DNA of 64,000 bases from Thermoproteota archaeon (GTDB lineage: Archaea > Korarchaeota > Korarchaeia > Korarchaeales > Korarchaeaceae), in contig JALSOH010000004.1 of assembly GCA_026986575.1 (NCBI GenBank), positions 224,001-288,000 on the forward strand, in the 5' to 3' direction. A program made the translations under genes and the position numbers. How positions within the stretch are numbered: the first letter of the stretch is position 1; each line of letters opens with the position of its first letter. Shown here one piece after another: positions 35,464 to 52,918 of the stretch. The notes below the pieces were generated by a model. The model worked only from the letters and a program-made list of their open reading frames with translations, made no database searches and had not been told where the DNA came from.

Positions 35464-35496
35464 CTAGGGCCCCGCCGCCTTTCACCCCTTCATGAG

Positions 35497-41759: not shown

Positions 41760-41881
41760 ATTGCTCACCTCTCGCACTGCCCGTTATGGGGCCAGTCTAC
41801 TCCCTCGTGCTACTGTCCATTTAAAAATATAATCTCTGGAAAGGTCGCATGCTTATTAGCGTTGGATGGTCTTACCCTAGG

Positions 41882-42845
41882 ATGGACGAGTCCGAAAGGT
41901 TGGAGGGGCTGCCTCCTTGGGCCATAGATACGCTAAAAACACTCGCACTCAGCAAGTCTCTTAAGGAGGGAACTACCAGACGAGTGGAGACATGTGAAAG
42001 TGAGACTGAGACGAGGAGAAATCCGCGATAAACTCCTCACCAGAGAGGAAGCTCATTGAGGCAGCTCCCTCAGCGAAGGCTAAGGCCCTAGTTGCGGCTG
42101 TCTATGATGGAGCTCTGAGGATTTCCGAAGCTATCTCGTTAAGGGTGAAGGATTTAGTGCCCTTTCATCATGATGGCGCCGTTGTGGGTTATATCACTTC
42201 AGCTAGGGGGGAAATGTGGGAGAGAACAATTCTGTTTGTCGACTCCTATCCTTATTTGAGGGAGTGGTTGTTAGTGCATCCCCTACCAGACCCAGATATG
42301 CCCCTCTTTCCCTCTTCCCTTAACATCTATAGACCTATGAGTAGACGAACCGCAGAGGACTTGTTTAAAACCATTAGAAGGAGAGCGGGATCAGAACATG
42401 TGACATGGCATTGGTTGAGGCATACACGACTCACTGAGCTAGCTTCGAAGCTTATAGAGAGCGAATTGAGACTCGTTGTGGGCTAACACCTAACTCGAAG
42501 ATGGTGGAGACCTACTTGCACCTCTCAGGGCGAGATGCCGTCTCAGCGATGGCAAGGAAGGTTTACGGCCTCGAACCAGAGGGTGAGGAACCAATCACAT
42601 CATCCATAGCTCCCAGAGTCTGCCTCGTATGTGGGTATACGAATCCTACAACAGGGAGGCTTTGCCTTCAGTGTGGCGCTGGGCTGGTCCTGAGTGAAGA
42701 GGAGAAAGTAGAAGTTGTAAAAAGGGAGCTGCTCGTGGATAGTATCATGTCCGCCGTAATGAGCGATGAGGAGGCTGCATCACTATTGAGAAAGGCCGTA
42801 GAGATAGCAGTGAAGCGAGGGCTTATCACATTGAGATTAAACTGA
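41882..42845 (+). pseudogene. Tyrosine recombinase/integrase with C-terminal double Zn ribbon, frameshifted
   Basis: KLLTREE / LIEAAPSAKAKALVAAVYDGALRISEAISLRVKD (box I Arg), HWLRHTRLT (HxxR), GGC-TA-ACA-CCT-AAC-TCG-AAG-ATG (GWTPNSKM with a 1-nt loss), catalytic Y in ETYLHLS, CLVC..CLQC. Confidence 0.85.
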
Positions 42846-43578
42846 AAATCCCGCTTCTTCCTCTTCTACCCCAATTGTATATTTTATAACAGCATTTTTC
42901 TTAGCTCATTCCACATGAGAAGAACACTCTCCTTGCTTATCGAAAAACTAGAAAAAATTTGCACTTCAATAAAGTAAGCCCTCTCCTTTGAGATTCGGGG
43001 AAAATAATCTATTTTGAAGGACTTAAGAAAACTGTCAATGGAGGGGAGGGTAATAAAAATAAGAGGGGTATTAGGGGGCTGGTACTTGCTAACACAAAGA
43101 GAAAGGAGAAATGAGAACAACTTAAGACCCATTCTCTCCTCTTCTTGATCATTAAATTAGGATACCTCCTTCTTGGTACTCTATATAATCTTCCCTCCTT
43201 GCTTCTCTTTCTGGTAGAGAAGGGAAGAGAGCAGCCTCGTGGAGAGTGAAAGAGAAGGGGTTAGGAACACCACGCCCATCACATGAAGATGAAAATGGAA
43301 GAGAGCATCACTCACTCTCATAAAGAGGATGAAAGAGATGTTGTTACCTCAAAGAGCACGCAGAAGAACAGGTATCTTCAAGAAAATGAAAAAGAGGGGG
43401 CTGTAACCACTCCCACCGCGTATAATTCCCATCAAGAGGCTAAAAAACACTATTACAGAGAACGCAGAAAGTGACCTGAGCCCAAGTGAGAACCCAGAAG
43501 ATGTGGAGTAGCCTCGCCCATTAAGAGATCAGGGTAAAGGGAAAGAGAATGAGTAATTTTCACTTTCTACTTTCTGGT

Positions 43579-43995
43579 TTAGTATAGCGTCCTCTCTTTG
43601 AAAGTGCCTAACATGTTTAACACTACTTTGATGGGGATCACCTCCAGCTGACCTTCCCTTCCAGTGAGAAGAACCGGGTAACCCCTTTTCAAGCCTAGAG
43701 CGTTGAAGAAGGGCTTGGGAATTGTGTATCTGACCGAACCGTCTCTTTGTTTGACTACCTTTACTTTCTTGACATTCCACCCCCGCCCCCTCAGTATTTG
43801 AACTGCTTTTTGCTTGCCGAGCTCTGAGTCTAGGTTAGTGAAGAGGATGCGATCCTTCCCTAAAATGGCCAGTACGAAGTCACCTATACGCGAGATGATG
43901 TGAGATGTTTGGATGAAGTAGGAATCACATCGAGGTCTCTTCTGAATCAGAACCACACTGTAGTAGGTATGATCGTCCCTTGTGTACGGCGTCAT
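43579..43995 (-). CDS. AbrB/MazE/SpoVT-like DNA-binding protein with N-terminal extension
   Basis: C-terminal KVVKQRDGSVRYTIPKPFFNALGLKRGYPVLLTGREGQLEVIP fits the swapped-hairpin pattern. Confidence 0.7.
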   Translation of the reverse strand: MTPYTRDDHTYYSVVLIQKRPRCDSYFIQTSHIISRIGDFVLAILGKDRILFTNLDSELGKQKAVQILRGRGWNVKKVKVVKQRDGSVRYTIPKPFFNALGLKRGYPVLLTGREGQLEVIPIKVVLNMLGTFKERTLY

Positions 43996-43998
43996 AGT

Positions 43999-44042
43999 AT
44001 CCTATATAGGCTTTTTTCTATTAAATAATTCCTATATAGGAT
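43999..44042. promoter_or_regulatory. Twin palindromic operator/binding sites in the divergent promoter
   Basis: CCTATATAGG at 44001-44010 and 44031-44040; overall 12-bp inverted repeat ATCCTATATAGG...CCTATATAGGAT around an AT-rich spacer. Confidence 0.65.
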
Positions 44043-44075
44043 CTACAAGGTTATATTGGAATTCCCACCACCCCA

Positions 44076-45143
44076 ATGGCGGAGGGTACGAGTGTGAAGA
44101 TAGCCATTGACAAGATCGTCGTTAACCCGGATCTCATAGCTAGGTCGAGTTTAAACGACGAGTACCTTGAAATGCTTGCAAAAAGTCTTGATGAGGATGG
44201 TCTCCTCCATCCGATAACAGTCAGACCACTAAGTGACGGTAGGTATGAGCTAATTGATGGTCTTCATAGGCTAAGTGCGGCAAAAAGGCTTGGTTGGAAG
44301 GATATAGAGGCTAATGTAATCGATGCAGATGACCTAGAGGCGAGGTTTCTCTCCCTCAAGGCGAATCTCGTGAGGAGAAGCTTAGAACCTGTTGAGGAGG
44401 GAGAGGTAGTCTATAGGATAATGGTCAAGCATGGTCTTACTGAGAAGGAGGTAGCAAAGAGGCTGGGGGTCACTACCAAGTGGGTATCTGAGAGGTTGGC
44501 CTTGGTGCTCAAGGTTCCAGAGGAAGTCAAGAAGATGGTTGCTGAAGGTAAGCTCGGTTTAGGACACGCGGTTGTTATCTCCAAGATAGAGGAAAAGGAG
44601 AAGCAGTTAAAGTTCGCCAGACTAATAGTTAGAGAGGGCTGGTCAGTCAAAGAAGCAGAGAGAATGCTACCAGAGTTCTTAAACGACACGATCTACACTA
44701 TAGGCTACGATGGGAGAACTTTCGAGGAGCTACTCTCCATCCTCAAAGAGAACGGCATAGTCATGGTGCTCGATGTGAGACACGATGTGGAGTTCGTCAA
44801 ACCGGAATTTTCGATAGAGGTTCTTAAGAGACAGCTTCCAGCCAATGGGATAAAGTATGTGCACGTTAAGGAGCTCGGAGTCCCCAAACTAATTAGGGAG
44901 CCGTATGTAAAGGGTAAAATGTCCTATGAATGCTTCAGACAATGGTATGAGTGGTGGTTAGAGGAAAACTCCGAAATCCTCGAAAGGGCTTTGAGAGAGG
45001 CAAAATCCACTGGTCCAACAGCTTTACTCTGTCAAGAGAGATATCCTACTCCGAAGAAGGGTCAGAAGCACTACTGCCATAGACATATACTCGCTGAGGT
45101 CGCCTTGGAGTTAGGTATATTTGAAAAAAGACTCGATTTATGA
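44076..45143 (+). CDS. ParB (ParBc + HTH) - DUF488 fusion protein
   Basis: N: GLLHPITVR, YELIDGLHRLSA, ANLVRRSL, HTH EVAKRLGVTTKWVSERL. C (from about 44685): IYTIGY, LDVR, GIKYVHVKELG, LLCQE, CHRHILAE. Confidence 0.85.
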   Translation: MAEGTSVKIAIDKIVVNPDLIARSSLNDEYLEMLAKSLDEDGLLHPITVRPLSDGRYELIDGLHRLSAAKRLGWKDIEANVIDADDLEARFLSLKANLVRRSLEPVEEGEVVYRIMVKHGLTEKEVAKRLGVTTKWVSERLALVLKVPEEVKKMVAEGKLGLGHAVVISKIEEKEKQLKFARLIVREGWSVKEAERMLPEFLNDTIYTIGYDGRTFEELLSILKENGIVMVLDVRHDVEFVKPEFSIEVLKRQLPANGIKYVHVKELGVPKLIREPYVKGKMSYECFRQWYEWWLEENSEILERALREAKSTGPTALLCQERYPTPKKGQKHYCHRHILAEVALELGIFEKRLDL

Positions 45144-46026
45144 GAGGGTATGTAAGCTGCCGAGGGAAAAGATAATAGTTTTGGCAAAAACTTATCCAGA
45201 AGTAAGCTCAAAGTACGGGCCACTTGTCTGCGTTGCAGGAGTTACTCTGAAGGGAGAGTGGAGGAGGCTCTATCCCATCCAGTTCAAGCTTTTCTATGAT
45301 AAGGAATTCGAGCATGCGAAATTCAAGAAATGGGATATCATTGAAGTTGAAACTACCACAGCGGAACACGATCCGAGGAGAGAGAGCAGAAAGGTAGTGG
45401 ATTGGAGAGCTATCAGACCCATTAGTCACGTGAGAGATTGGAGTTTGAGGCTTTACATCACATCGAGATTCTTAGATCCTAGTATCGAGGATATAGTAAA
45501 TAGTGGTAAGAGTCTCGGGATAGTTAAGCCTAGATCTATCAAGAAGTTCTACAGAAAAGAAAGAGCTAGGATCAGAGATAGAGGTGAACTTCAAGTTCTT
45601 GAGAGGATGGAAGCTGTTAGTCTCACCCAATATATTGAGATGGGGGACGAATATTTGCTTCCCGAAGTTAAACGCCGAGAAGTGATTCCCGAAGAATTAC
45701 CTTGGTTGGGATATAGATTCGTGTGTGAGGGTGAAGGTTGTAAGGGACATGACATGATGGTAATAGATTGGGAAATTCAAGAGCTTTACAGAAAATTAAG
45801 ACAGGAGAGGAATGAAGAGGAAGCTTTCGAAAAGACCAAAGAGAAGGCTATGTGGATGGCCACAGAGAGGAACTTATACTTCGTCGTTGGAAACACTTGG
45901 AGATATCACAAAAGCTTCATGATCATCGGCCTTATCTACCCACCGAAGGATGTAAAACCAGTAAATCCATTGGAGGACCTCTTTGAGCAGTCAGAAGAGG
46001 AGGTGCTAACACGGTTTCTTGAGTGA
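45121..46026 (+). CDS. Conserved-looking hypothetical protein of a type recalled next to DUF488 genes (possibly dual OB-fold)
   Basis: LAKTYPEVSSKYGPLVCVAG, WRRLYP, FKKWDII, DPRRES, SLGIVKP, C..C..H, IDWE, FVVGN, FMIIGL.YPP; overlaps the upstream gene by 23 nt. Confidence 0.7.
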   Translation: MKKDSIYERVCKLPREKIIVLAKTYPEVSSKYGPLVCVAGVTLKGEWRRLYPIQFKLFYDKEFEHAKFKKWDIIEVETTTAEHDPRRESRKVVDWRAIRPISHVRDWSLRLYITSRFLDPSIEDIVNSGKSLGIVKPRSIKKFYRKERARIRDRGELQVLERMEAVSLTQYIEMGDEYLLPEVKRREVIPEELPWLGYRFVCEGEGCKGHDMMVIDWEIQELYRKLRQERNEEEAFEKTKEKAMWMATERNLYFVVGNTWRYHKSFMIIGLIYPPKDVKPVNPLEDLFEQSEEEVLTRFLE

Positions 46027-46119
46027 ATTCATCTTATCTGCAGATGGAGAAATTTCCGTGACCGCTAGAGGTTATCTCGCGCTAATAAGGAGATTAGTCT
46101 AAAGTAGTTTTCCCTCATA

Positions 46120-46659
46120 TCCGTATCTCAGTGCTGGTATGTGCACCCTTCACGATCTCAAGGATTCTCTCAACGTCATCCTCCCTACACCATCACGATT
46201 TTCAATCCGAGGGGAACCACCTTTTCTATGTTCCCCTTCACCTGACCGGGCTCATTCCTCACCTCTCCGGGGACTTGACCTCTATTGAGACTGTATCCTC
46301 TAAATCCCAAGTCCATTCTTCTAGAGGGATGGCTAGGAAGTCAGGTTGGAATTCACCCTTCTGCATTAGTGTAACCACTAAGTATCCAGCCTCCTGTAGT
46401 GCATAACAGCTTCCTCGGCCACCGATGGTGACACTTTCCTCACGTTAATCTGTGATCTTAGATATCTCCTTCCCGATCCCGTCGTCTCTAATATCTTTAT
46501 TCTACCCCTCTCCACTTCCTTCCCGGCCTTCAGCCTCATAAGGCCCTGATCTAAGAACTTCTTGATGCGTTTTGGTACATCAGCTCTGCTCAAACCGAGA
46601 CTCTCCTCCATCTCCATCACGTAAGCCTTTTCTCCCAGCATGTCTATGAGATTTAACAC
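46120..46659 (-). pseudogene. wHTH + PD-(D/E)xK nuclease-like remnant, frameshifted
   Basis: 46378-46659 is wHTH-like (ETTGSGRRYL); after a frameshift it reads GYLVVTLMQKGEFQPDFLAIP...SIEVKSP. Confidence 0.45.
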
Positions 46660-46719
46660 TGCATAGTCCTTTGGATCGGGGAGTTTCTCGACATCTATTA
46701 GATAGATCTAAAAACAGAG

Positions 46720-48700
46720 CTACTCTATTCTCATCTCCCTCTCTGATGCCTTGTACGTCTCCCTCATCCTCCTCACTATTTCCATAGCCTCCTCTCTATC
46801 TCTCAAGGCTCGGGGAGGTGGGCTCATCCTCACTCGATATAATAAGAAGGGCTTTCTTGGATCCGAGGGCCTAATCCCCACCAAAGCGACATGGTTCGGT
46901 AGGCTCACCAAATCGTGGCGTATGTCCTCCTTCATACTTGGGCCTATTATGCTCGCTAATCTACTCGCATCCTCTCCTGAAACGCGAAACATTATCTGGG
47001 TAGCTGTATTAGTGAGAATAGAGGCTATTAATTCATCTAAGAGCTGCTTGAGGTTCTGATGAATGTGTGTGCGTAGTAGCTTATATTTCCTACTTTCAGA
47101 AAGTAGAGAGGTTTTGCAGGTTCTGGAACTCATCAACGAATAACAGGATAGGTGTCCTCTCCTCATAAAGGTATTCCCTAGCCCTAGACAGGACAGCGAA
47201 CCATATGGAAAGCGCTACGGCAGCACTCCCAGCTCAAGCACCTAGCCCGGTAGGTCGGCCTTCGAAAATCTCCAGATTACCAATTTACCATCCTCTAGGA
47301 GCTCCTCCATTCTCACAGTACTCTTTCTCCTTGAGAACGTCCCCCTAAGGAGAGGAGATGTAGCGAAAGCCTGTAACTTGTTTAGAGCTGCTGCAAATGC
47401 ATCAGAAGGAAGCCTCTGTATGAATTCCATGCTCTCTTTTATCGCCTGCTCGTCCTTCAGAACCTGTTGCATCTCCATCGTGAGCATCAAACCCTTCTTT
47501 CTAAGCCTCATTATCACGTTATAGAGATCCCTAAACGTTGGCCTATCACTCTTCAAGTAAAGTAGCGTAGACATGTCTGTAAAACCTAAGTTAGTCTAGG
47601 TGCTTTTTGTGTTGCGATGCTAAATAATTGTTCGAAGATCTTCATCATTTCGGAGATTTTCAGCTCAACAAGAATATCACATTTCTCCTCATCCTCATAC
47701 GGAGCTAGTTCGAGAGGATTCGGTGAGTAGCCGACTTCGATTATATCGAAGTAGTAGAGTGAGCTGGGATCCAGATCTACCTCTAGAAGTTCTCTCGCTA
47801 AATCACTATGTGGATCAATTACATGTATGGCAGCCTTATATCTCTTCTTTCTCAGTCCAACTATGAGATTTTCAGTATTGTGCTCTTTCCGTGCCTGAAG
47901 CCCCTATTACATATGTGTGTAGCTCTAACGCGTAGAATGGGAGCTTAAACAGGTCTCATCTCCTCACTGAGAACCTGCGTCAACTCTTCCTTAGCCTCCT
48001 TAACCAGAGTTTTCAACCTCCCTAAACGTTCCATACTTACAAGATCACCCCCGACGCTATGCTGTCTTCTTAGGGGGATAGCTAGCAGCCCTAACTGAAC
48101 TCCGCAAGCCACTTTAGAGGAAGAGACTCGTCATCGGGTAACCTCACGAAATCAGTGATCTCTTGCGATGTCGCTGGGATTGTGAGTAAATGCTTCATAT
48201 CCAGCCTCTCTTCAATCCTCTTCTTCAATGAGCCCCTATTCACCTTAATTCCACGATATGCGATCTCCTTTATATATCCTTCTAGCTAGGAGACCCTTCA
48301 CGACATATAGTTGAAGAGACTCATAATCCCCTCTCTGTGCCCATGCATCCTTCAAAAGAAGGGAAGCCATCTTCCTAGCCATCTCTCGCCAGTCATATTC
48401 AATTACCAATATCTGGAGCAGGGCCCTTTCTGCTGTGGAGAGGGAACGGAGTGCGTTGTTTATCGAATTCACTCCGCTAGGCTCAATAAACGTAAAACCG
48501 TTCCCTACTGAAAAGGCCAACGATAAAGATGACAGCAAGTGGGTTAGGAGGTACCCAGATCCTCACCTTCCTAAAGCTAACATTCCTATACACTCCTCTC
48601 AGCAGATCGACCATCTCTCTACGCGAGGGAGAGAAGATCCTCGTCCTTATCTTCCCACCCTCAATATGATACTCTATACACCCCCTGAAGCCACTGGCTA
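46720..48700 (-). pseudogene. VirD4/TraG/HerA-like (DUF87) ATPase, multiple frameshifts and stops
   Basis: HTYVIGASGT[fs]KS Walker A (about 47885-47920), IHVIDPHSDLA, NPLE, LLFVDEFQN Walker B (about 47120-47150), SESRKY, HQ, NTATQIMFRVSGEDA. Confidence 0.8.
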
Positions 48701-48759
48701 GTTGGAGTGCCTCCTCTTTTCCAATTCAACTGGTGGATACTCTATCTCATATCCAAGAA

Positions 48760-49255
48760 CTACCGTTTCCTCTTCACCTCCACTTCAACATCTGAGAAGA
48801 CGAGTACGGTGTCTCCCTCCAATTCACCCTTCAATAGCACGCGTGTACCCTTATACGAGGTGAAAACACGCGTGAGATTGACGTAATTCTTCCCTTTTCT
48901 CACTGTATAATCCGTGATGGGGCGTACGGCCACCTCCACATTGTATTCTCCCCTCTCCTTCTCTTCTATCTCTCCCTCATCTTCAACAGTGAAAGATACA
49001 GTCAGAGGCATCGTCTCCAAGAGAGGGAAACTTGACAGCTCTCAGCCTCGCAGGTCTGAAAACCAGCTTCACAGTGCACCTTCCATCCTTCATGTATGTG
49101 TACTCCTCGATCGCGAAGAGTAGCTTCTCCTCCGCCCACTTTCCTAACTTGATACCTCTCTTCTCCACCTCCTCTCTCAGCTTCCTGAAAGCCTCGTTCC
49201 TTACTTCATTGTAATCCTTTCCCTCTAGGAGGACGGCTATCTTTTCATCGCTCAC
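48760..49255 (-). pseudogene. Hypothetical protein, probably one gene split by a frameshift (48983-49255 + 48760-49020)
   Basis: Two overlapping coding-like ORFs in different frames. Confidence 0.4.
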
Positions 49256-49545
49256 TCGCGCGCGATGCCTCGATCGGTATCACAGGTACCTCCTCCCTCT
49301 CCAGTGAAGTGATCCTCCAGCCTATGGGTATGAACCTCCTTTGCAGATACTCTACGACCTCCTCCACTATACACCCATAATGGCGGATTGAACATCTTAT
49401 CATCTAGCACTTCACCGCTAGGACCCTTAACGATCAATCTCAGGGAAGGATTGTGGACGTACTCATCAGGTCTCCTAGTAAACATAAAAATACCAGCATT
49501 TGTTGCCGTATACTCACCATTCCTACTTGTTACGCGCGCTTTCAC
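49252..49545 (-). CDS. Hypothetical protein (element-borne)
   Basis: Coding-like ORF coupled to the downstream ORF by a 4-nt overlap. Confidence 0.45.
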   Translation of the reverse strand: MKARVTSRNGEYTATNAGIFMFTRRPDEYVHNPSLRLIVKGPSGEVLDDKMFNPPLWVYSGGGRRVSAKEVHTHRLEDHFTGEGGGTCDTDRGIARE

Positions 49546-49557
49546 CGTATAAAGAGG

Positions 49558-49945
49558 CTATTTCATCAGTCTAGCCTTCCTTGTACTTGAACCCATCCTC
49601 AGGTAGACGTCATTCCCAAATACGTAGATCTTATTCTTCTCAGGTGTGACTTTTATCACGAATACTCTCTTATCATCGAGAAATACCCACTCATACTCCA
49701 GACGGGGTTTAGGCTGGAGTGAGTTAAGGAAGTTAGTTAGCTTCTCCACACTATCATCTGGGCCCCCCAACTTCTCCTGAATCGTTAACACCAACAAGTA
49801 CAATCCCTCCTTCCCTATTTGCAAGAGCACAGATAGCCTGCATCAGCTTTTTATTCACCCTCTCCTTGAATTCTAATCGAGGGCCTTCTCCCCTCTTTAG
49901 AAGAGCTACTAACTCCTCCTTCTCTACATACGTACCATGATACAA
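49558..49945 (-). pseudogene. Schlafen/AlbA_2 domain protein, frameshifted in a G6 run
   Basis: GEGPRLEFKE, ICALANREGGIVLVGVNDSG, continuing in another frame as ...QPKP...VIKV...YLRMGSSTR. Confidence 0.8.
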
Positions 49946-50129
49946 AACATAAACATATATAAATGCAGACGAAAAGTATGCGAATGTTTGAAATAGATTT
50001 GGGAACTTTCCACATGATTTTATATAATATAAGCAGTATAATAGACATAACTTCTAATTATCCCACGATCATATTACATTATCTTACCTACGTTTAATTT
50101 GTCTTCCTACCCAAAGAGAATAGGAATAT

Positions 50130-50560
50130 CTGAGAGAGTTAGGTTTCTCTGTATCATTTACAGCTACCTACGCATCGCTGCACGAGCTGGGCCATTACCT
50201 CGCTAGGATAATATCGAAGTTGAGTCCAAGCGACATGGCCTTGATGAGGATGTTTATCCAAGGGCCTGTCAAGCCGTCCGATGTACCCATAATCCTCTCG
50301 ACGGGAACTATCTTCTCTCTCGCAGTCGTCCTGATCTTCCTCATAGTCGCCAAGGCTTCGGGTAAGACCTTCCTAGTCTACGCCGGTTTCGCTGCTAACG
50401 CGGCCTTCAACCTCCTGACGCCTGTGGGCGACGCTCTGTGGCCGATCCTCGACTTGGACACGTCTGCCCTCCTGTTCTACCTCAGGCATGCCCTCCTGTT
50501 CCTCCTGATCCTGTCACTCATCAACGATATGAAGCTCTTCACAACGGATCGCGCGCGGGA
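50130..50560 (+). pseudogene. M50-like membrane metalloprotease fragment
   Basis: In frame upstream of the track's TTG: ASLHELGHYLA (HExxH); then AGFAAN and hydrophobic helices. Confidence 0.45.
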
Positions 50561-51430
50561 ACTCGCTTCTTTCCGCGTTGTCGGGGAGGAAGAGAACATG
50601 AAGCTCGCTCTGGCTTCAATCTTCACGAAAGATTTGGAGAAGGGACACTAGGTCAACGTGATAGCTCTGGGGCCCTCAGGAAGCGGAAAAACGACGATAA
50701 TAAAGGGCGCCCTCTCCGTTTTACCTCAAAATCACTACAAGGAGATAGTCCGCGCAACTGACGCGGCGTTCGAGTATGCTGCAGAGGAGCTGAAGCACAA
50801 GGTCATAGCGTTCATACAGATGCCAGCTGGACAGTCGAAGAGCGACACGATACATGTCCTAACGAGCGAGGGAGAGCTGAGGATACTCATAACGGTGAAG
50901 GACGAGGAGACGGGCACTAGGAGAACGGTGGAGAGGAAAGCGAAGGGCCCCGTCGTCTTGCTGGGGGCGATAGTGGACGAGAAACTTGTCAGGATCGACG
51001 AGCAGATGAAAACGAGGACCCTCTTCATCTCCCTCAACCCCTCTGGGTCCCAGACGATCGAGATAATCAGGAACAAGAAGTTACAGTGATGCATGTTCTA
51101 CCTCAACTCGATCTACGAGGATCAGCTCAGGGAGTTCAGGGAGTGTTATGAGTCTTTTTCCGCCGGCGCAATAAGGTAGGTCTATAATCTCCTCTTCCCG
51201 CTCATCGGAATAAACCCCGGGCTGGGGAGAGGGTGAGGAGGGACGTAGCCAAGGTCGAGAGCATCATAGATGTGCTCGCTTACCTGAGGCAGGGTAGGAG
51301 GTACATACTCAGGCTGAAGAAGAGGATAAGCGACAACGGTAAGGAGGAGAGGGTCTGGATGTCATCCCGCCTTCTGTGCAAGACCTGATGGATGCTGTAG
51401 ATATCGTCAAGTCAACACTTGAGAAAATAA
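50560..51430 (+). pseudogene. MCM-like AAA+ ATPase/helicase of mobile elements, in-frame stop and frameshifts
   Basis: VVGEEENMKL..[TAG 50649]..NVIALGPSGSGKT, SEGEL, KGPV, QMKTR; later RVRRDVAKVESIIDVLAYLRQ. Confidence 0.65.
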
Positions 51431-52168
51431 TTTTTTAGAATATTCTCCATACTTAAAGAAAATTCTGGAAGCGCGCGAATTATTAAGAATATTAGGCACT
51501 ATATTCACAGTTTTCAACTCGGTGAATTCATGAAAAAGAGTAGAAACACTATCCTTCGAAAAAGAAGGTCGAGGAAGAGGAAGAAAAGGGCCATTTTAGA
51601 ACAGATTAAGAGGGAAAAGATGAAAGAGGTGATCGTATGAGCGAGAATAACGAACTAATGCGTTTAGTTTAAGAGAGTGTGGTAGGGGTAAAAGAAATCC
51701 CGGTAAAATCTCGAAAGACCTTCTTAATGCTGATTTTGTCTCTCTTGTCTCGCTAAGGGAGGAGAAAGTTGTTCTCCTCGATGAAAGGGACAAAAACGAA
51801 CTCACCAAATCTCTAGGATTAAAAATGAGCTATAATTCGCTTGAAATGAAGAAGAAAGAAGGGAATGGCACTAATTTCGAAGAGAAAAGTGTCTTTGTGA
51901 TCGGAGACCTTCATGTCGGCAACAAGCTTTTTGATCATCCTGCTTTATTCTCTGCTCACTCAAATTCAAGAGAGTGAGGAAAAGATAGATGAAATCGCAC
52001 TCGGTTTATCTTGCGAGAATGAAGCAGAAGAAGGCACGTATTTATATAACGGAGAATGTTGCTCTAATAGTGGCCTACTTGCCTCCCCCTCCCCCCCACT
52101 TCTCCTTTCTAAAAAGGAAGTTGTTGGATCTAAACGCAACTAAGTTGGCAGAATAACTAGTGATTTTT

Positions 52169-52660
52169 TTACATATTCTTTCCCGACTTTGTATTAACTT
52201 TCACAAGTTCATTTATAATTTGATTTATTTGACTGGTTTTATGTCTGTTAATCCTGAAGGATGCTAAAAAGATCATAGCAAACGCCAAAATAGTGATGAA
52301 TATATCTAAATTATATTTTTCAGTAGCAAAAGAATATATAGCCAATAGTAGAAGAGAAATGAGCGAGGATGAGCAGATGGATCCTCCTATATGTCGGATG
52401 TATATAACCCGTTCCAATCCTACAACGACACTTTTCCCATATTTTCTTTCTATAAAGAAGATGGCCTTAAAGAATGCTCCATACCCCTCACCGAATTCAT
52501 GAGGAGGCTTAACTCCCACATCAGTTATCTTGAGAGCTGCAACAGTCTCGCTGGAGAGTATTCCTAAAAAGTAAGATACCATGATAACTTCTAGGAATGA
52601 ATATATGTCAGATGCGGAGATTTTATATATAGACCCAGTCACCTGAGTAGATATATCCAA
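52169..52660 (-). CDS. AT-rich membrane protein (possibly a fragment)
   Basis: Three hydrophobic segments; atypical codon usage. Confidence 0.4.
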   Translation of the reverse strand: MDISTQVTGSIYKISASDIYSFLEVIMVSYFLGILSSETVAALKITDVGVKPPHEFGEGYGAFFKAIFFIERKYGKSVVVGLERVIYIRHIGGSICSSSLISLLLLAIYSFATEKYNLDIFITILAFAMIFLASFRINRHKTSQINQIINELVKVNTKSGKNM

Positions 52661-52918
52661 TTACAGATAAGATATTGAAACCTCCCATTATATATGTTAG
52701 ATCTCTCATAATGAAGGAAGTGTACAACCTATCTCCCAACAAATCTCCACTGCTGACCAAAGGATCACACCCGAATTGATCCCTCACTATCTACTAATAA
52801 CTTCAGCCTTACTTAGTTGAAATGGTTGAGCGTCGTTGAGGATTATTCCTAAGATATTTGTTAAATGTGCGATCTTCTCAATGTTTAATATAACTGCGAG
52901 AGTTATCCTGTCGGACAG

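Follow-up and report, generated by a model that had tools for sequence, protein, structure and literature searches.

A ParB–DUF488 fusion and its tandem-OB partner gene, best described as an archaeal variant of the candidate defence module PDC-M19

The known roles of proteins built on a ParB-type cytidine triphosphate (CTP) switch are those of clamps, which act in DNA segregation, in nucleoid occlusion and in the regulation of genes. Two catalogued entities come close to the locus described here. In a recent survey of ParB-fold proteins, an archaeal "DUF488-HTH" ParB fusion was found to bind CTP in the DRaCALA assay, in which GxxR Arg-to-Ala mutants of the positive binders served as negative controls (PNAS 2025;122:e2527592122, PMC12704722; 10.1101/2025.10.10.680097). 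In the PADLOC database, PDC-M19 is a two-gene cassette combining a DUF488 protein with a partner of about 250 residues, the PDC entries being phage-defence candidates predicted through "guilt by embedding" in BREX, DISARM and type I restriction-modification loci (Payne et al., bioRxiv 10.1101/2024.01.29.577857). Here, we report on a 64,000-nucleotide stretch of DNA (positions 224,001 to 288,000 of contig JALSOH010000004.1, assembly GCA_026986575.1; hereafter the window) from a Thermoproteota archaeon of the Korarchaeaceae, in which a gene fusing ParB_N, HTH_ParB and DUF488 domains (44076..45143, forward strand) is followed by a gene encoding a protein with predicted tandem oligonucleotide/oligosaccharide-binding (OB) folds. 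The best description of this locus is that of PDC-M19, the module of DUF488 and double-OB genes, in an archaeal form fused to ParB and carried on plasmids and integrated elements. The surveyed ParB-CTPase–helix-turn-helix (HTH)–DUF488 protein has the same three-domain architecture as the window protein; in the text and supplements searched, the survey gives one line to this architecture, with no DUF488 activity, partner gene or DNA-loading test (PMC12704722). New here are the link of the ParB–DUF488 fusion with the OB partner and PDC-M19 and the altered ParB switch; as a discovery this is limited, both the architecture and the gene pair having been catalogued before.

The fusion gene is an ATG-initiated open reading frame (ORF) encoding 355 residues, with matches in Pfam and NCBIfam. 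Its product comprises a ParB N-terminal nucleotide-binding (CTPase-fold) domain at residues 8-98 (44097..44369, forward strand; PF02195, E 1.1e-14, 54.7 bits against a curated Pfam-A cut-off of 26.3), a ParB-type HTH DNA-binding domain at residues 102-200 (44379..44675, forward strand; PF17762, E 3.6e-21) and a DUF488 domain at residues 203-355 (44682..45140, forward strand; PF04343, E 6.3e-17), for which a Cys-phosphatase-like α/β fold is predicted by the structural model. Within the latter, residues 216-342 score 62.8 bits against a curated cut-off of 22.2, and all three Pfam domains exceed their curated cut-offs. Moreover, NCBIfam TIGR00180 (parB_part) matches the protein with E 2e-29, and a sequence search of the PDB aligned its N-terminal 200 residues with chains of Noc, Spo0J and ParB at E of about 1e-25. 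An earlier note on this DNA, made from the sequence alone, had read residues 1 to about 200 as ParB-like and the C-terminal part as DUF488-like with intact DVR, LLCQE and CHR motifs; the Pfam and NCBIfam matches together with the Noc, Spo0J and ParB structures bear out the first part, and the PF04343 score and the conservation of the motif residues the second. These motifs lie at residues 59-65 (LIDGLHR), 97-100 (NLVR), 233-235 (DVR), 317-321 (LLCQE) and 334-336 (CHR). In an alignment of 34 relatives (37-69% identity), G62, R65, N97, D233, R235, C319, E321, C334, H335 and R336 are each present in 34/34 sequences, the invariant set of the DUF488 domain comprising T208, G210, D233, R235, P243, G268, Y291, C319, E321, Q330, C334, H335, R336, F349, R352 and D354. 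The AlphaFold2 model of the fusion protein, built on this alignment, has a mean predicted local distance difference test (pLDDT) of 91.7.

The fusion is widespread in archaea. A homologue search among 5.8 billion clustered proteins (length band 195-622 residues, E <= 0.001) gave 235 matches, and 118 of the 120 homologue clusters listed combine ParB_N, HTH_ParB and DUF488, the remaining two being short fragments with HTH and DUF488 only. With at least 118 protein clusters built in this way, the fusion is no isolated case, and the accidental loss of a stop codon, which the earlier note had named as a way for its proposal to fail, does not account for it. Among the matches listed, the organisms named by the source are all archaeal and include Pyrococcus kukulkanii (69% identity), Saccharolobus shibatae, Thermoplasmatota, Bathyarchaeia, Baldrarchaeia and Heimdallarchaeota. 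In GTDB, searched with one genome per species, the full-length fusion occurs at 18 loci, all archaeal and spanning Thermoproteota, Bathyarchaeia, Promethearchaeota (Asgard), Halobacteriales and methanogens, while the other 61 loci kept are bacterial and matched in the ParB part only. PF04343 is matched by 19/19 fused DUF488 domains, and in a tree these 19 lie on one side of a branch (support 92/99) with five stand-alone DUF488 domains on the other, a small sample whose sequences are consistent with a single origin of the ParB–DUF488 fusion. DUF488 itself was matched in 7 of 14 control genomes, E. coli included, and the source genome has one DUF488 gene. A search for longer fused forms (623-2000 residues) containing the DUF488 domain of the window returned none at E <= 0.001, which is weak evidence, and among IMG/VR viral contigs five loci matched the ParB part alone, with no full-length fusion. 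A Streptomyces plasmid match (H35) with 86% query coverage proved to be an ordinary ParA–ParB pair and was not counted.

The fusion gene overlaps by 23 nt with its partner gene (45121..46026, forward strand), an ORF that encodes a predicted DuOB-like tandem-OB protein of 301 residues from a TTG start; this start is uncertain, since sequence conservation sets in at about residue 13. In 17 of the 18 archaeal loci, a homologue of the partner (250-300 residues across loci) adjoins the fusion gene on the same strand, being downstream in 11 and upstream in 6. An ORF downstream of the fusion gene in the remaining locus (L011) was considered as a partner and rejected (hhalign probability 0.6%). In Pfam, no match was found for the window partner or for the 120 homologue clusters listed out of 354. 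The two OB folds of its AlphaFold2 model (pLDDT 85.4) span residues of about 10-105 and 116-278. Of the 50 rows returned by the structural comparison tool VIA, nearly all are OB-fold nucleic-acid-binding proteins or domains, including RecO (Z 7.3), RPA (7.2), the RPA70 trimerisation core (6.9, residues 117-278), PriB and single-stranded DNA-binding proteins, with Z values that are modest and matches that are mutually consistent. Foldseek retrieved tandem-OB modules of HIN-200 proteins and RPA70-AB (best E 4.5e-4), and the BFVD viral library baculovirus LEF-3 (E 1.3e-4). Regarding sequence families, PHROG 25907 matches the partner with E 1e-41, while DuOB (PF22557) is matched weakly, by two of 19 relatives at E 0.02 and by a phage and a pSOG2 homologue at E 0.002, all under the cut-off of 27 bits; DuOB is also the Atlas lead for the partner (score 0.85). 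According to its model, the partner would share two OB folds with RPA70 DBD-A/B, HIN-200, LEF-3 and DuOB, from which its lack of a Pfam match sets it apart, and it is predicted to bind DNA. C202 and H210 are invariant and C207 nearly so among its relatives, so that these three residues could form a metal site. Neither this double-OB neighbour nor the mobile-element setting had figured in the earlier note.

Both genes of the pair match the PADLOC candidate. Residues 192-343 of the fusion protein match PDC-M19A with E 7.1e-22, with weaker matches to PDC-M45B and M45C, and residues 15-278 of the partner match PDC-M19B on profile positions 5-243 of 252 with E 4.3e-45, that is, over its full length. 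The same models are matched by 12/12 other archaeal partners and by 4/4 other fusions checked. PDC-M19A is matched over profile positions 137-281 of 294 only, and its N-terminal part matches, not ParB, but a SocA/Panacea-type protein encoded at locus L007 (3671-4330, reverse strand; SocA/Panacea Pfam E 7e-08; PDC-M19A positions 7-115, E 3.9e-08). This match implies that the bacterial M19A proteins are Panacea–DUF488 fusions, with a link to toxin-antitoxin systems, and, taken with the partial coverage of the profile, that the archaeal form swaps the Panacea-like domain for ParB_N and HTH. Among bacteria and their phages, a Pseudomonas plasmid and Gordonia phage Eviarto each have the partner next to a stand-alone gene for DUF488, and for three further bacterial plasmid matches a DUF488 gene is listed under the partner match. 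In Eviarto, the pair sits between the immunity repressor and the integrase. Literature searches returned no mention of PDC-M19 and no match for pSOG1, one of the plasmids described below, together with ParB.

The N-terminal module of the fusion protein closely resembles clamp-forming ParB proteins in structure. Indeed, VIA aligned the fusion model with Noc (7nfu, Z 19.4), CcParB (6t1f, Z 19.0) and KorB (8qa9, Z 17.8), and its HTH domain with the DNA-bound DNA-binding domains of ParB and Noc (6s6h and 6y93, Z 12.0-12.3); with the whole fusion model as query, Foldseek returned ParB-family chains only at E <= 0.001 (KorB, E 6e-10). At the residue level, the QPR, GERR and ENLQR motifs of solved ParBs are replaced by IAR, GLHR and ANLVR, respectively. 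The equivalences were set by the Myxococcus xanthus ParB (MxParB) chains 7bnr (Q52A) and 7o0n (E93A), in which Q52 corresponds to I21, E93 to L63 and R95 to R65 of the window protein. In M. xanthus ParB, Q52 and E93 are the residues that catalyse CTP hydrolysis and the opening of the ring; the Q52A and E93A variants bind CTP, close their rings, hydrolyse poorly and are retained on DNA, and the R95A variant has lost binding (bioRxiv 10.1101/2021.05.05.442810). Among the 34 relatives, the nucleotide-binding residues R23, G62, R65 and N97 are each found in 34/34 and R100 in 31/34, a Gln at position 21 in 0/34, a Glu at position 63 in 5/34 and a Glu at position 96 in 0/34. Because the binding residues are invariant while the catalytic Gln is never present and the catalytic Glu in five sequences only, the family looks built for nucleotide binding, without turnover by the canonical route. 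Moreover, Pfam-A detects no canonical ParB C-terminal dimerisation domain in the fusion protein, residues 203-355 being DUF488 in its place, as the earlier note had stated, and between the last helix of the HTH and the first strand of DUF488 lie residues 203-204 alone (pLDDT of about 97). The fusion thus shares with the canonical ParB, Noc and KorB clamps the nucleotide-binding fold with its GxxR motif, the Box III Asn and Arg and the HTH, but differs from them in having no C-terminal dimerisation domain, linker, adjacent ParA or conserved equivalents of Q52 and E93.

Regarding the DUF488 domain, fold matches were taken from residues 203-355 of the full-length model. VIA retrieved the dual-specificity phosphatase (DSP) laforin (4r30, Z 8.5, root-mean-square deviation (rmsd) 3.0, 115 residues), a Sulfolobus protein tyrosine phosphatase (PTP; 2dxp and 3ro1, Z 8.4-8.5), a DUF442 phosphatase (Z 7.9), the RNA 5'-phosphatase BVP (Z 7.7-7.8) and chain M of the human co-transcriptional capping structure 8p4c (Z 7.7), along with PRL, KAP, PTPMT1 and Tk-PTP. 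The PTP and DSP chains have Z values of 7-8.5, rated as middling by the tool, with an rmsd of about 3 Å over 100-115 residues. In the model and the alignment, C319 ends a central strand and, after a loop of 14 residues, C334-H335-R336 opens the next helix. The modelled domain would share with Cys-dependent PTPs, DSPs and RNA 5'-phosphatases an α/β fold in which an invariant Cys closes a central strand and an invariant Arg begins the helix that follows; it differs from them in the second invariant Cys of its C334-H-R motif, in lacking HCX5R and in having no detected relation at the sequence level. Among solved structures, no sequence relative of DUF488 was found, a profile search giving chance-level matches (E >= 0.1), and in the ESM Atlas residues 203-355 had no usable match without PF04343. 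Since Z values near 8 can reflect a common arrangement, the predicted resemblance to Cys-phosphatases is a fold-level lead and not a membership. Burroughs and Aravind are said to have placed DUF488, in 2023, in a "RapZ-C-DUF488-DUF4326" clade that falls within the rhodanese-phosphatase superfamily, with predicted DNA-end processing in conflict systems, in a scheme that reportedly also includes diphthine-synthase-like methylases. The weak cross-matches of the fused DUF488 domains with DUF4326 (1/19, E 0.007) and with the Pfam entries "DUF488-N3a" and "DUF488-N3i" would fit such a placement. A paper from the Burroughs/Aravind group states only that DUF4326 is a member of the rhodanese-phosphatase superfamily.

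The genomic setting of the pair is that of mobile DNA. In the window, it lies in a low-GC island of about 11 kb (41800..52900, limits approximate; G+C content 0.454, the flanks reaching 0.514 and 0.526), an integrated mobile element in decay that is bordered by pyruvate-oxidoreductase-like genes on one side and by an arginase-family gene (52919) on the other. Fusion and partner are intact amid this pseudogene-rich island, and the fusion was found in 0/20 other genomes of the same genus and in 0/4 genomes from other genera of the family. The full-length fusion followed by the partner is carried by the Sulfolobus islandicus plasmid pSOG1 (L096) and by a Saccharolobus shibatae plasmid, while on the Haloquadratum plasmid PL100 the partner precedes the fusion, with DNA methyltransferases and a DUF262 gene nearby. 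Neighbours at the 18 archaeal loci are, among others, genes for integrases (L004, L018), for transposases (L005, L007), for a Rep protein (L006) and for a DUF927 primase-type product (L018).

Upstream of the fusion gene, an 80-nt divergent promoter region (43996-44075) contains two palindromes TCCTATATAGG set 30 bp apart (44000..44041). Exact copies of TCCTATATAGG are limited to these two, in the window as in the whole 1.9-Mb genome, and with at most one mismatch the window holds seven matches against 2.0 expected, a number reached in 0/100 shuffles. Judging from the sequence, the twin palindromes could serve as operator or loading site; just as well, they could be promoter elements that include a TATA sequence, or an AbrB-like protein could bind there. 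Indeed, the divergent gene (43579..43995, reverse strand) encodes a 138-residue protein with an AbrB/MazE-like C-terminus, which has no Pfam match itself and whose homologues at the same position in loci L001 and L002 (43-45% identity) match PF04014 MazE_antitoxin with E 1.7e-07 and 6.6e-07; it is probably a small regulator of the module. Palindromes upstream of the fusion in L001 and L002 were considered as a conserved site and rejected, their sequences being different and those of AT-rich promoter DNA.

As to what the module does, we tentatively favour, at a little less than an even chance, the processing of DNA ends or nucleotide adducts in conflicts involving mobile elements. The N-terminal ParB domain of the window protein would bind CTP, as printed for the same architecture, and the HTH would put the protein on specific DNA, with the twin palindromes of its own promoter as candidate site. 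Because the hydrolysis-residue positions are not conserved and the canonical C-terminal dimerisation domain is absent, the ParB part would most likely act as a slow or non-hydrolysing, nucleotide-gated DNA-docking switch, and probably not as a canonical partition clamp. Judging from its fold and conserved residues (C319, E321, C334-H335-R336, D233 and R235), the rigidly attached DUF488 domain would be a Cys-phosphatase-fold enzyme with a phosphate-bearing group as its target; the most plausible targets would be the ends of DNA or RNA and adducts that are ADP-ribose or derive from nucleotides. The tandem-OB partner, given its fold and conserved adjacency, would provide binding to single-stranded or end DNA. 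The role of the whole would most likely lie in the conflict of mobile elements with their rivals (defence or exclusion) or in the establishment of the element, segregation being unlikely. In its fullest form, this proposal has the ParB switch, once bound to CTP and docked at its site, license the DUF488 enzyme, which together with the tandem-OB binder would process the DNA ends, or adducts linked to the DNA through phosphate, of an element that is replicating or invading. We consider this unlikely; if true, no DNA-processing enzyme gated by a nucleotide and tethered by ParB would have preceded it, and it would be an immune or exclusion mechanism specific to archaea.

Several observations weigh against a role in DNA-end or adduct processing. 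No DUF488 protein has a known activity; the view of the earlier note that the fusion is uncharacterised is nevertheless partly out of date, the architecture being already in print with a CTP-binding result (PMC12704722). The classical HCX5R loop is absent from the DUF488 domain, which has C319-x16-R336 instead, and hhalign gives a probability of 1.4% for the alignment of DUF488 with the genome's own PTP (HCLAGCGRT). Tetrapyrrole and diphthine methylase N-domains are intermixed in the VIA list with Z 7.4-9.0, and the tool itself warns that a Z near 8 may mirror a common arrangement. On the ParB side, the nucleotide preference of ParB-fold proteins is, according to the survey, not predictable from sequence (PMC12704722). 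PDC-M19 has the status of an untested candidate, and defence-like neighbours are found at only about 5 of the 18 loci, so that the main grounds for a defence role are its entry in the PADLOC catalogue and the mobile setting. Finally, the pair is not strictly obligate. Locus L011, a 3.7-kb contig, has the fusion without a partner, and on pSOG2 (L088) the integrase is directly followed by the partner, with no fusion, where pSOG1 has fusion then partner; pSOG2 is a natural deletion variant relative to pSOG1, and since it keeps the partner without the fusion, the two genes can exist apart.

The other explanations assign the ParB part a more familiar job. The earlier note had proposed a CTP-gated sliding clamp that carries a Cys-dependent domain along DNA, and in its strict form, with a DUF488 dimer as second gate of a closed, site-loaded ring, we regard this as distinctly unlikely. 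The ParB_N and HTH domains are close to those of the clamp-forming ParB, Noc and KorB, CTP binding is printed for the same architecture (PMC12704722), and poorly hydrolysing ParB variants still close their rings and spread further (bioRxiv 10.1101/2021.05.05.442810); a CTP-binding ParB and a tethered domain resembling Cys-dependent enzymes are fair parts of the proposal. The sliding clamp itself is unproven: the dimerisation domain was not detected, the residues for hydrolysis are not conserved, the junction of about two residues between HTH and DUF488 leaves no flexible linker for a DNA lumen, and the candidate site, present twice and side by side in the genome, fits an operator equally. A partition system, in which a centromere-binding ParB would use DUF488 and the OB protein as adaptor or structural parts, is what the public annotation "ParB/RepB/Spo0J family partition protein" on pSOG1, on PL100 and in Pyrococcus would imply, in line with the TIGR00180 match and the plasmid location. 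We hold it to be improbable, for no ParA-family gene was found among the island ORFs scanned or near 17 of the 18 loci (the sole ParA-like neighbour, in L016, being 1.3 kb away on the opposite strand), and the N-terminus of the fusion (MAEGTSVKIAID) has no LG[KR]GL-type ParA-binding motif. According to the survey, archaeal ParB-HTH proteins are rarely beside ParA and segregation is unlikely (PMC12704722). Moreover, catalytic-looking DUF488 residues conserved in 34/34 relatives would not be expected of a mere adaptor, and bacteria and phages have the pair of DUF488 and OB genes without ParB.

The locus could also encode a CTP-dependent transcription regulator of a mobile element, similar to KorB or VirB, whose enzyme-like domain senses or modifies a small molecule. 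The confinement of the twin palindromes, within the genome, to its own divergent promoter, the likeness of the model to KorB in both structural searches (8qa9, Z 17.8 in VIA; E 6e-10 in Foldseek), the adjoining gene for a small AbrB-like regulator and the position of the pair beside the immunity repressor in Gordonia phages all speak for this explanation. We nevertheless rate it as clearly unlikely: it leaves the near-obligate tandem-OB partner and the invariant Cys/His/Arg set unexplained, the palindromes overlap a TATA-like sequence and could be promoter elements or the operator of the AbrB-like protein, and those upstream of the fusion in L001 and L002 have other sequences. Highly improbable, in our view, is an addiction pair of the toxin-antitoxin kind, one product being toxic to DNA metabolism and the other neutralising it. 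The tight overlap of the two genes on mobile DNA, their preservation in an otherwise decayed island and the SocA/Panacea antitoxin-type match of the N-terminus of bacterial PDC-M19A (L007) would suit such a pair, but the Panacea domain is replaced here by ParB-HTH, both proteins are large, conserved and unlike typical antitoxins, and the OB partner occurs without the fusion on pSOG2.

An enzyme hard-wired to a CTP switch across many archaeal phyla, together with an OB partner, would widen the uses of CTP switches beyond those known for ParB-type proteins. The locus would also offer a handle on DUF488, a very common domain; it joins the ParB-fold survey, the PADLOC candidate list and the classification of the phosphatase superfamily, and points to concrete substrates and mutants.

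Pseudogene fragments fill the rest of the island. Two adjacent ORFs (42145..42845) make up a broken tyrosine recombinase, one a Phage_integrase fragment (profile positions 77-143 of 172) and the other a 114-residue piece with weak zinc-ribbon matches, and these fragments are probably the island's defunct integrase. A gene of AlbA_2/Schlafen type is broken into two overlapping ORFs (49558..49945, reverse strand; PF04326 positions 1-47 and 54-117), and P-loop ATPase fragments lie at 46720-47574 and 50658-51089. No flanking att-type direct repeats of the island were found, nor a tRNA gene at its edge, the nearest one ending at 35464. At the right edge, before the arginase-family gene, a stretch of very low G+C content (0.377-0.384; 51500-52500) contains short ORFs only.

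Some of the related loci have organisations of their own. In phage Eviarto (L090, 3024-5271), the immunity repressor gp44 (HTH_31) and the OB-partner homologue gp43 are accompanied by the convergent stand-alone DUF488 gene gp42. In a Promethearchaeia locus (L014, 1788-4331), one ParB–DUF488 gene has three OB-partner paralogues in tandem on its upstream side and a HEPN (Hypoth_Ymh) gene downstream. A Bathyarchaeia locus (L009, 2325-7812) contains two successive modules, the order being a gene resembling phosphoadenosine phosphosulfate (PAPS) reductases (BrxP/SspD-like in PADLOC), a second M19B-like OB protein, a DUF488-less ParB-HTH gene, one more ORF and then the ParB–DUF488 fusion with its partner. 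Finally, in Methanosarcina (L018, 5166-5591, reverse strand), a second, small DUF488-like protein ("DUF488-N3a", PDC-M45C-like) is encoded divergently from the ParB–DUF488 gene, near ThiF/E1-like, DUF927 primase-type and integrase genes.

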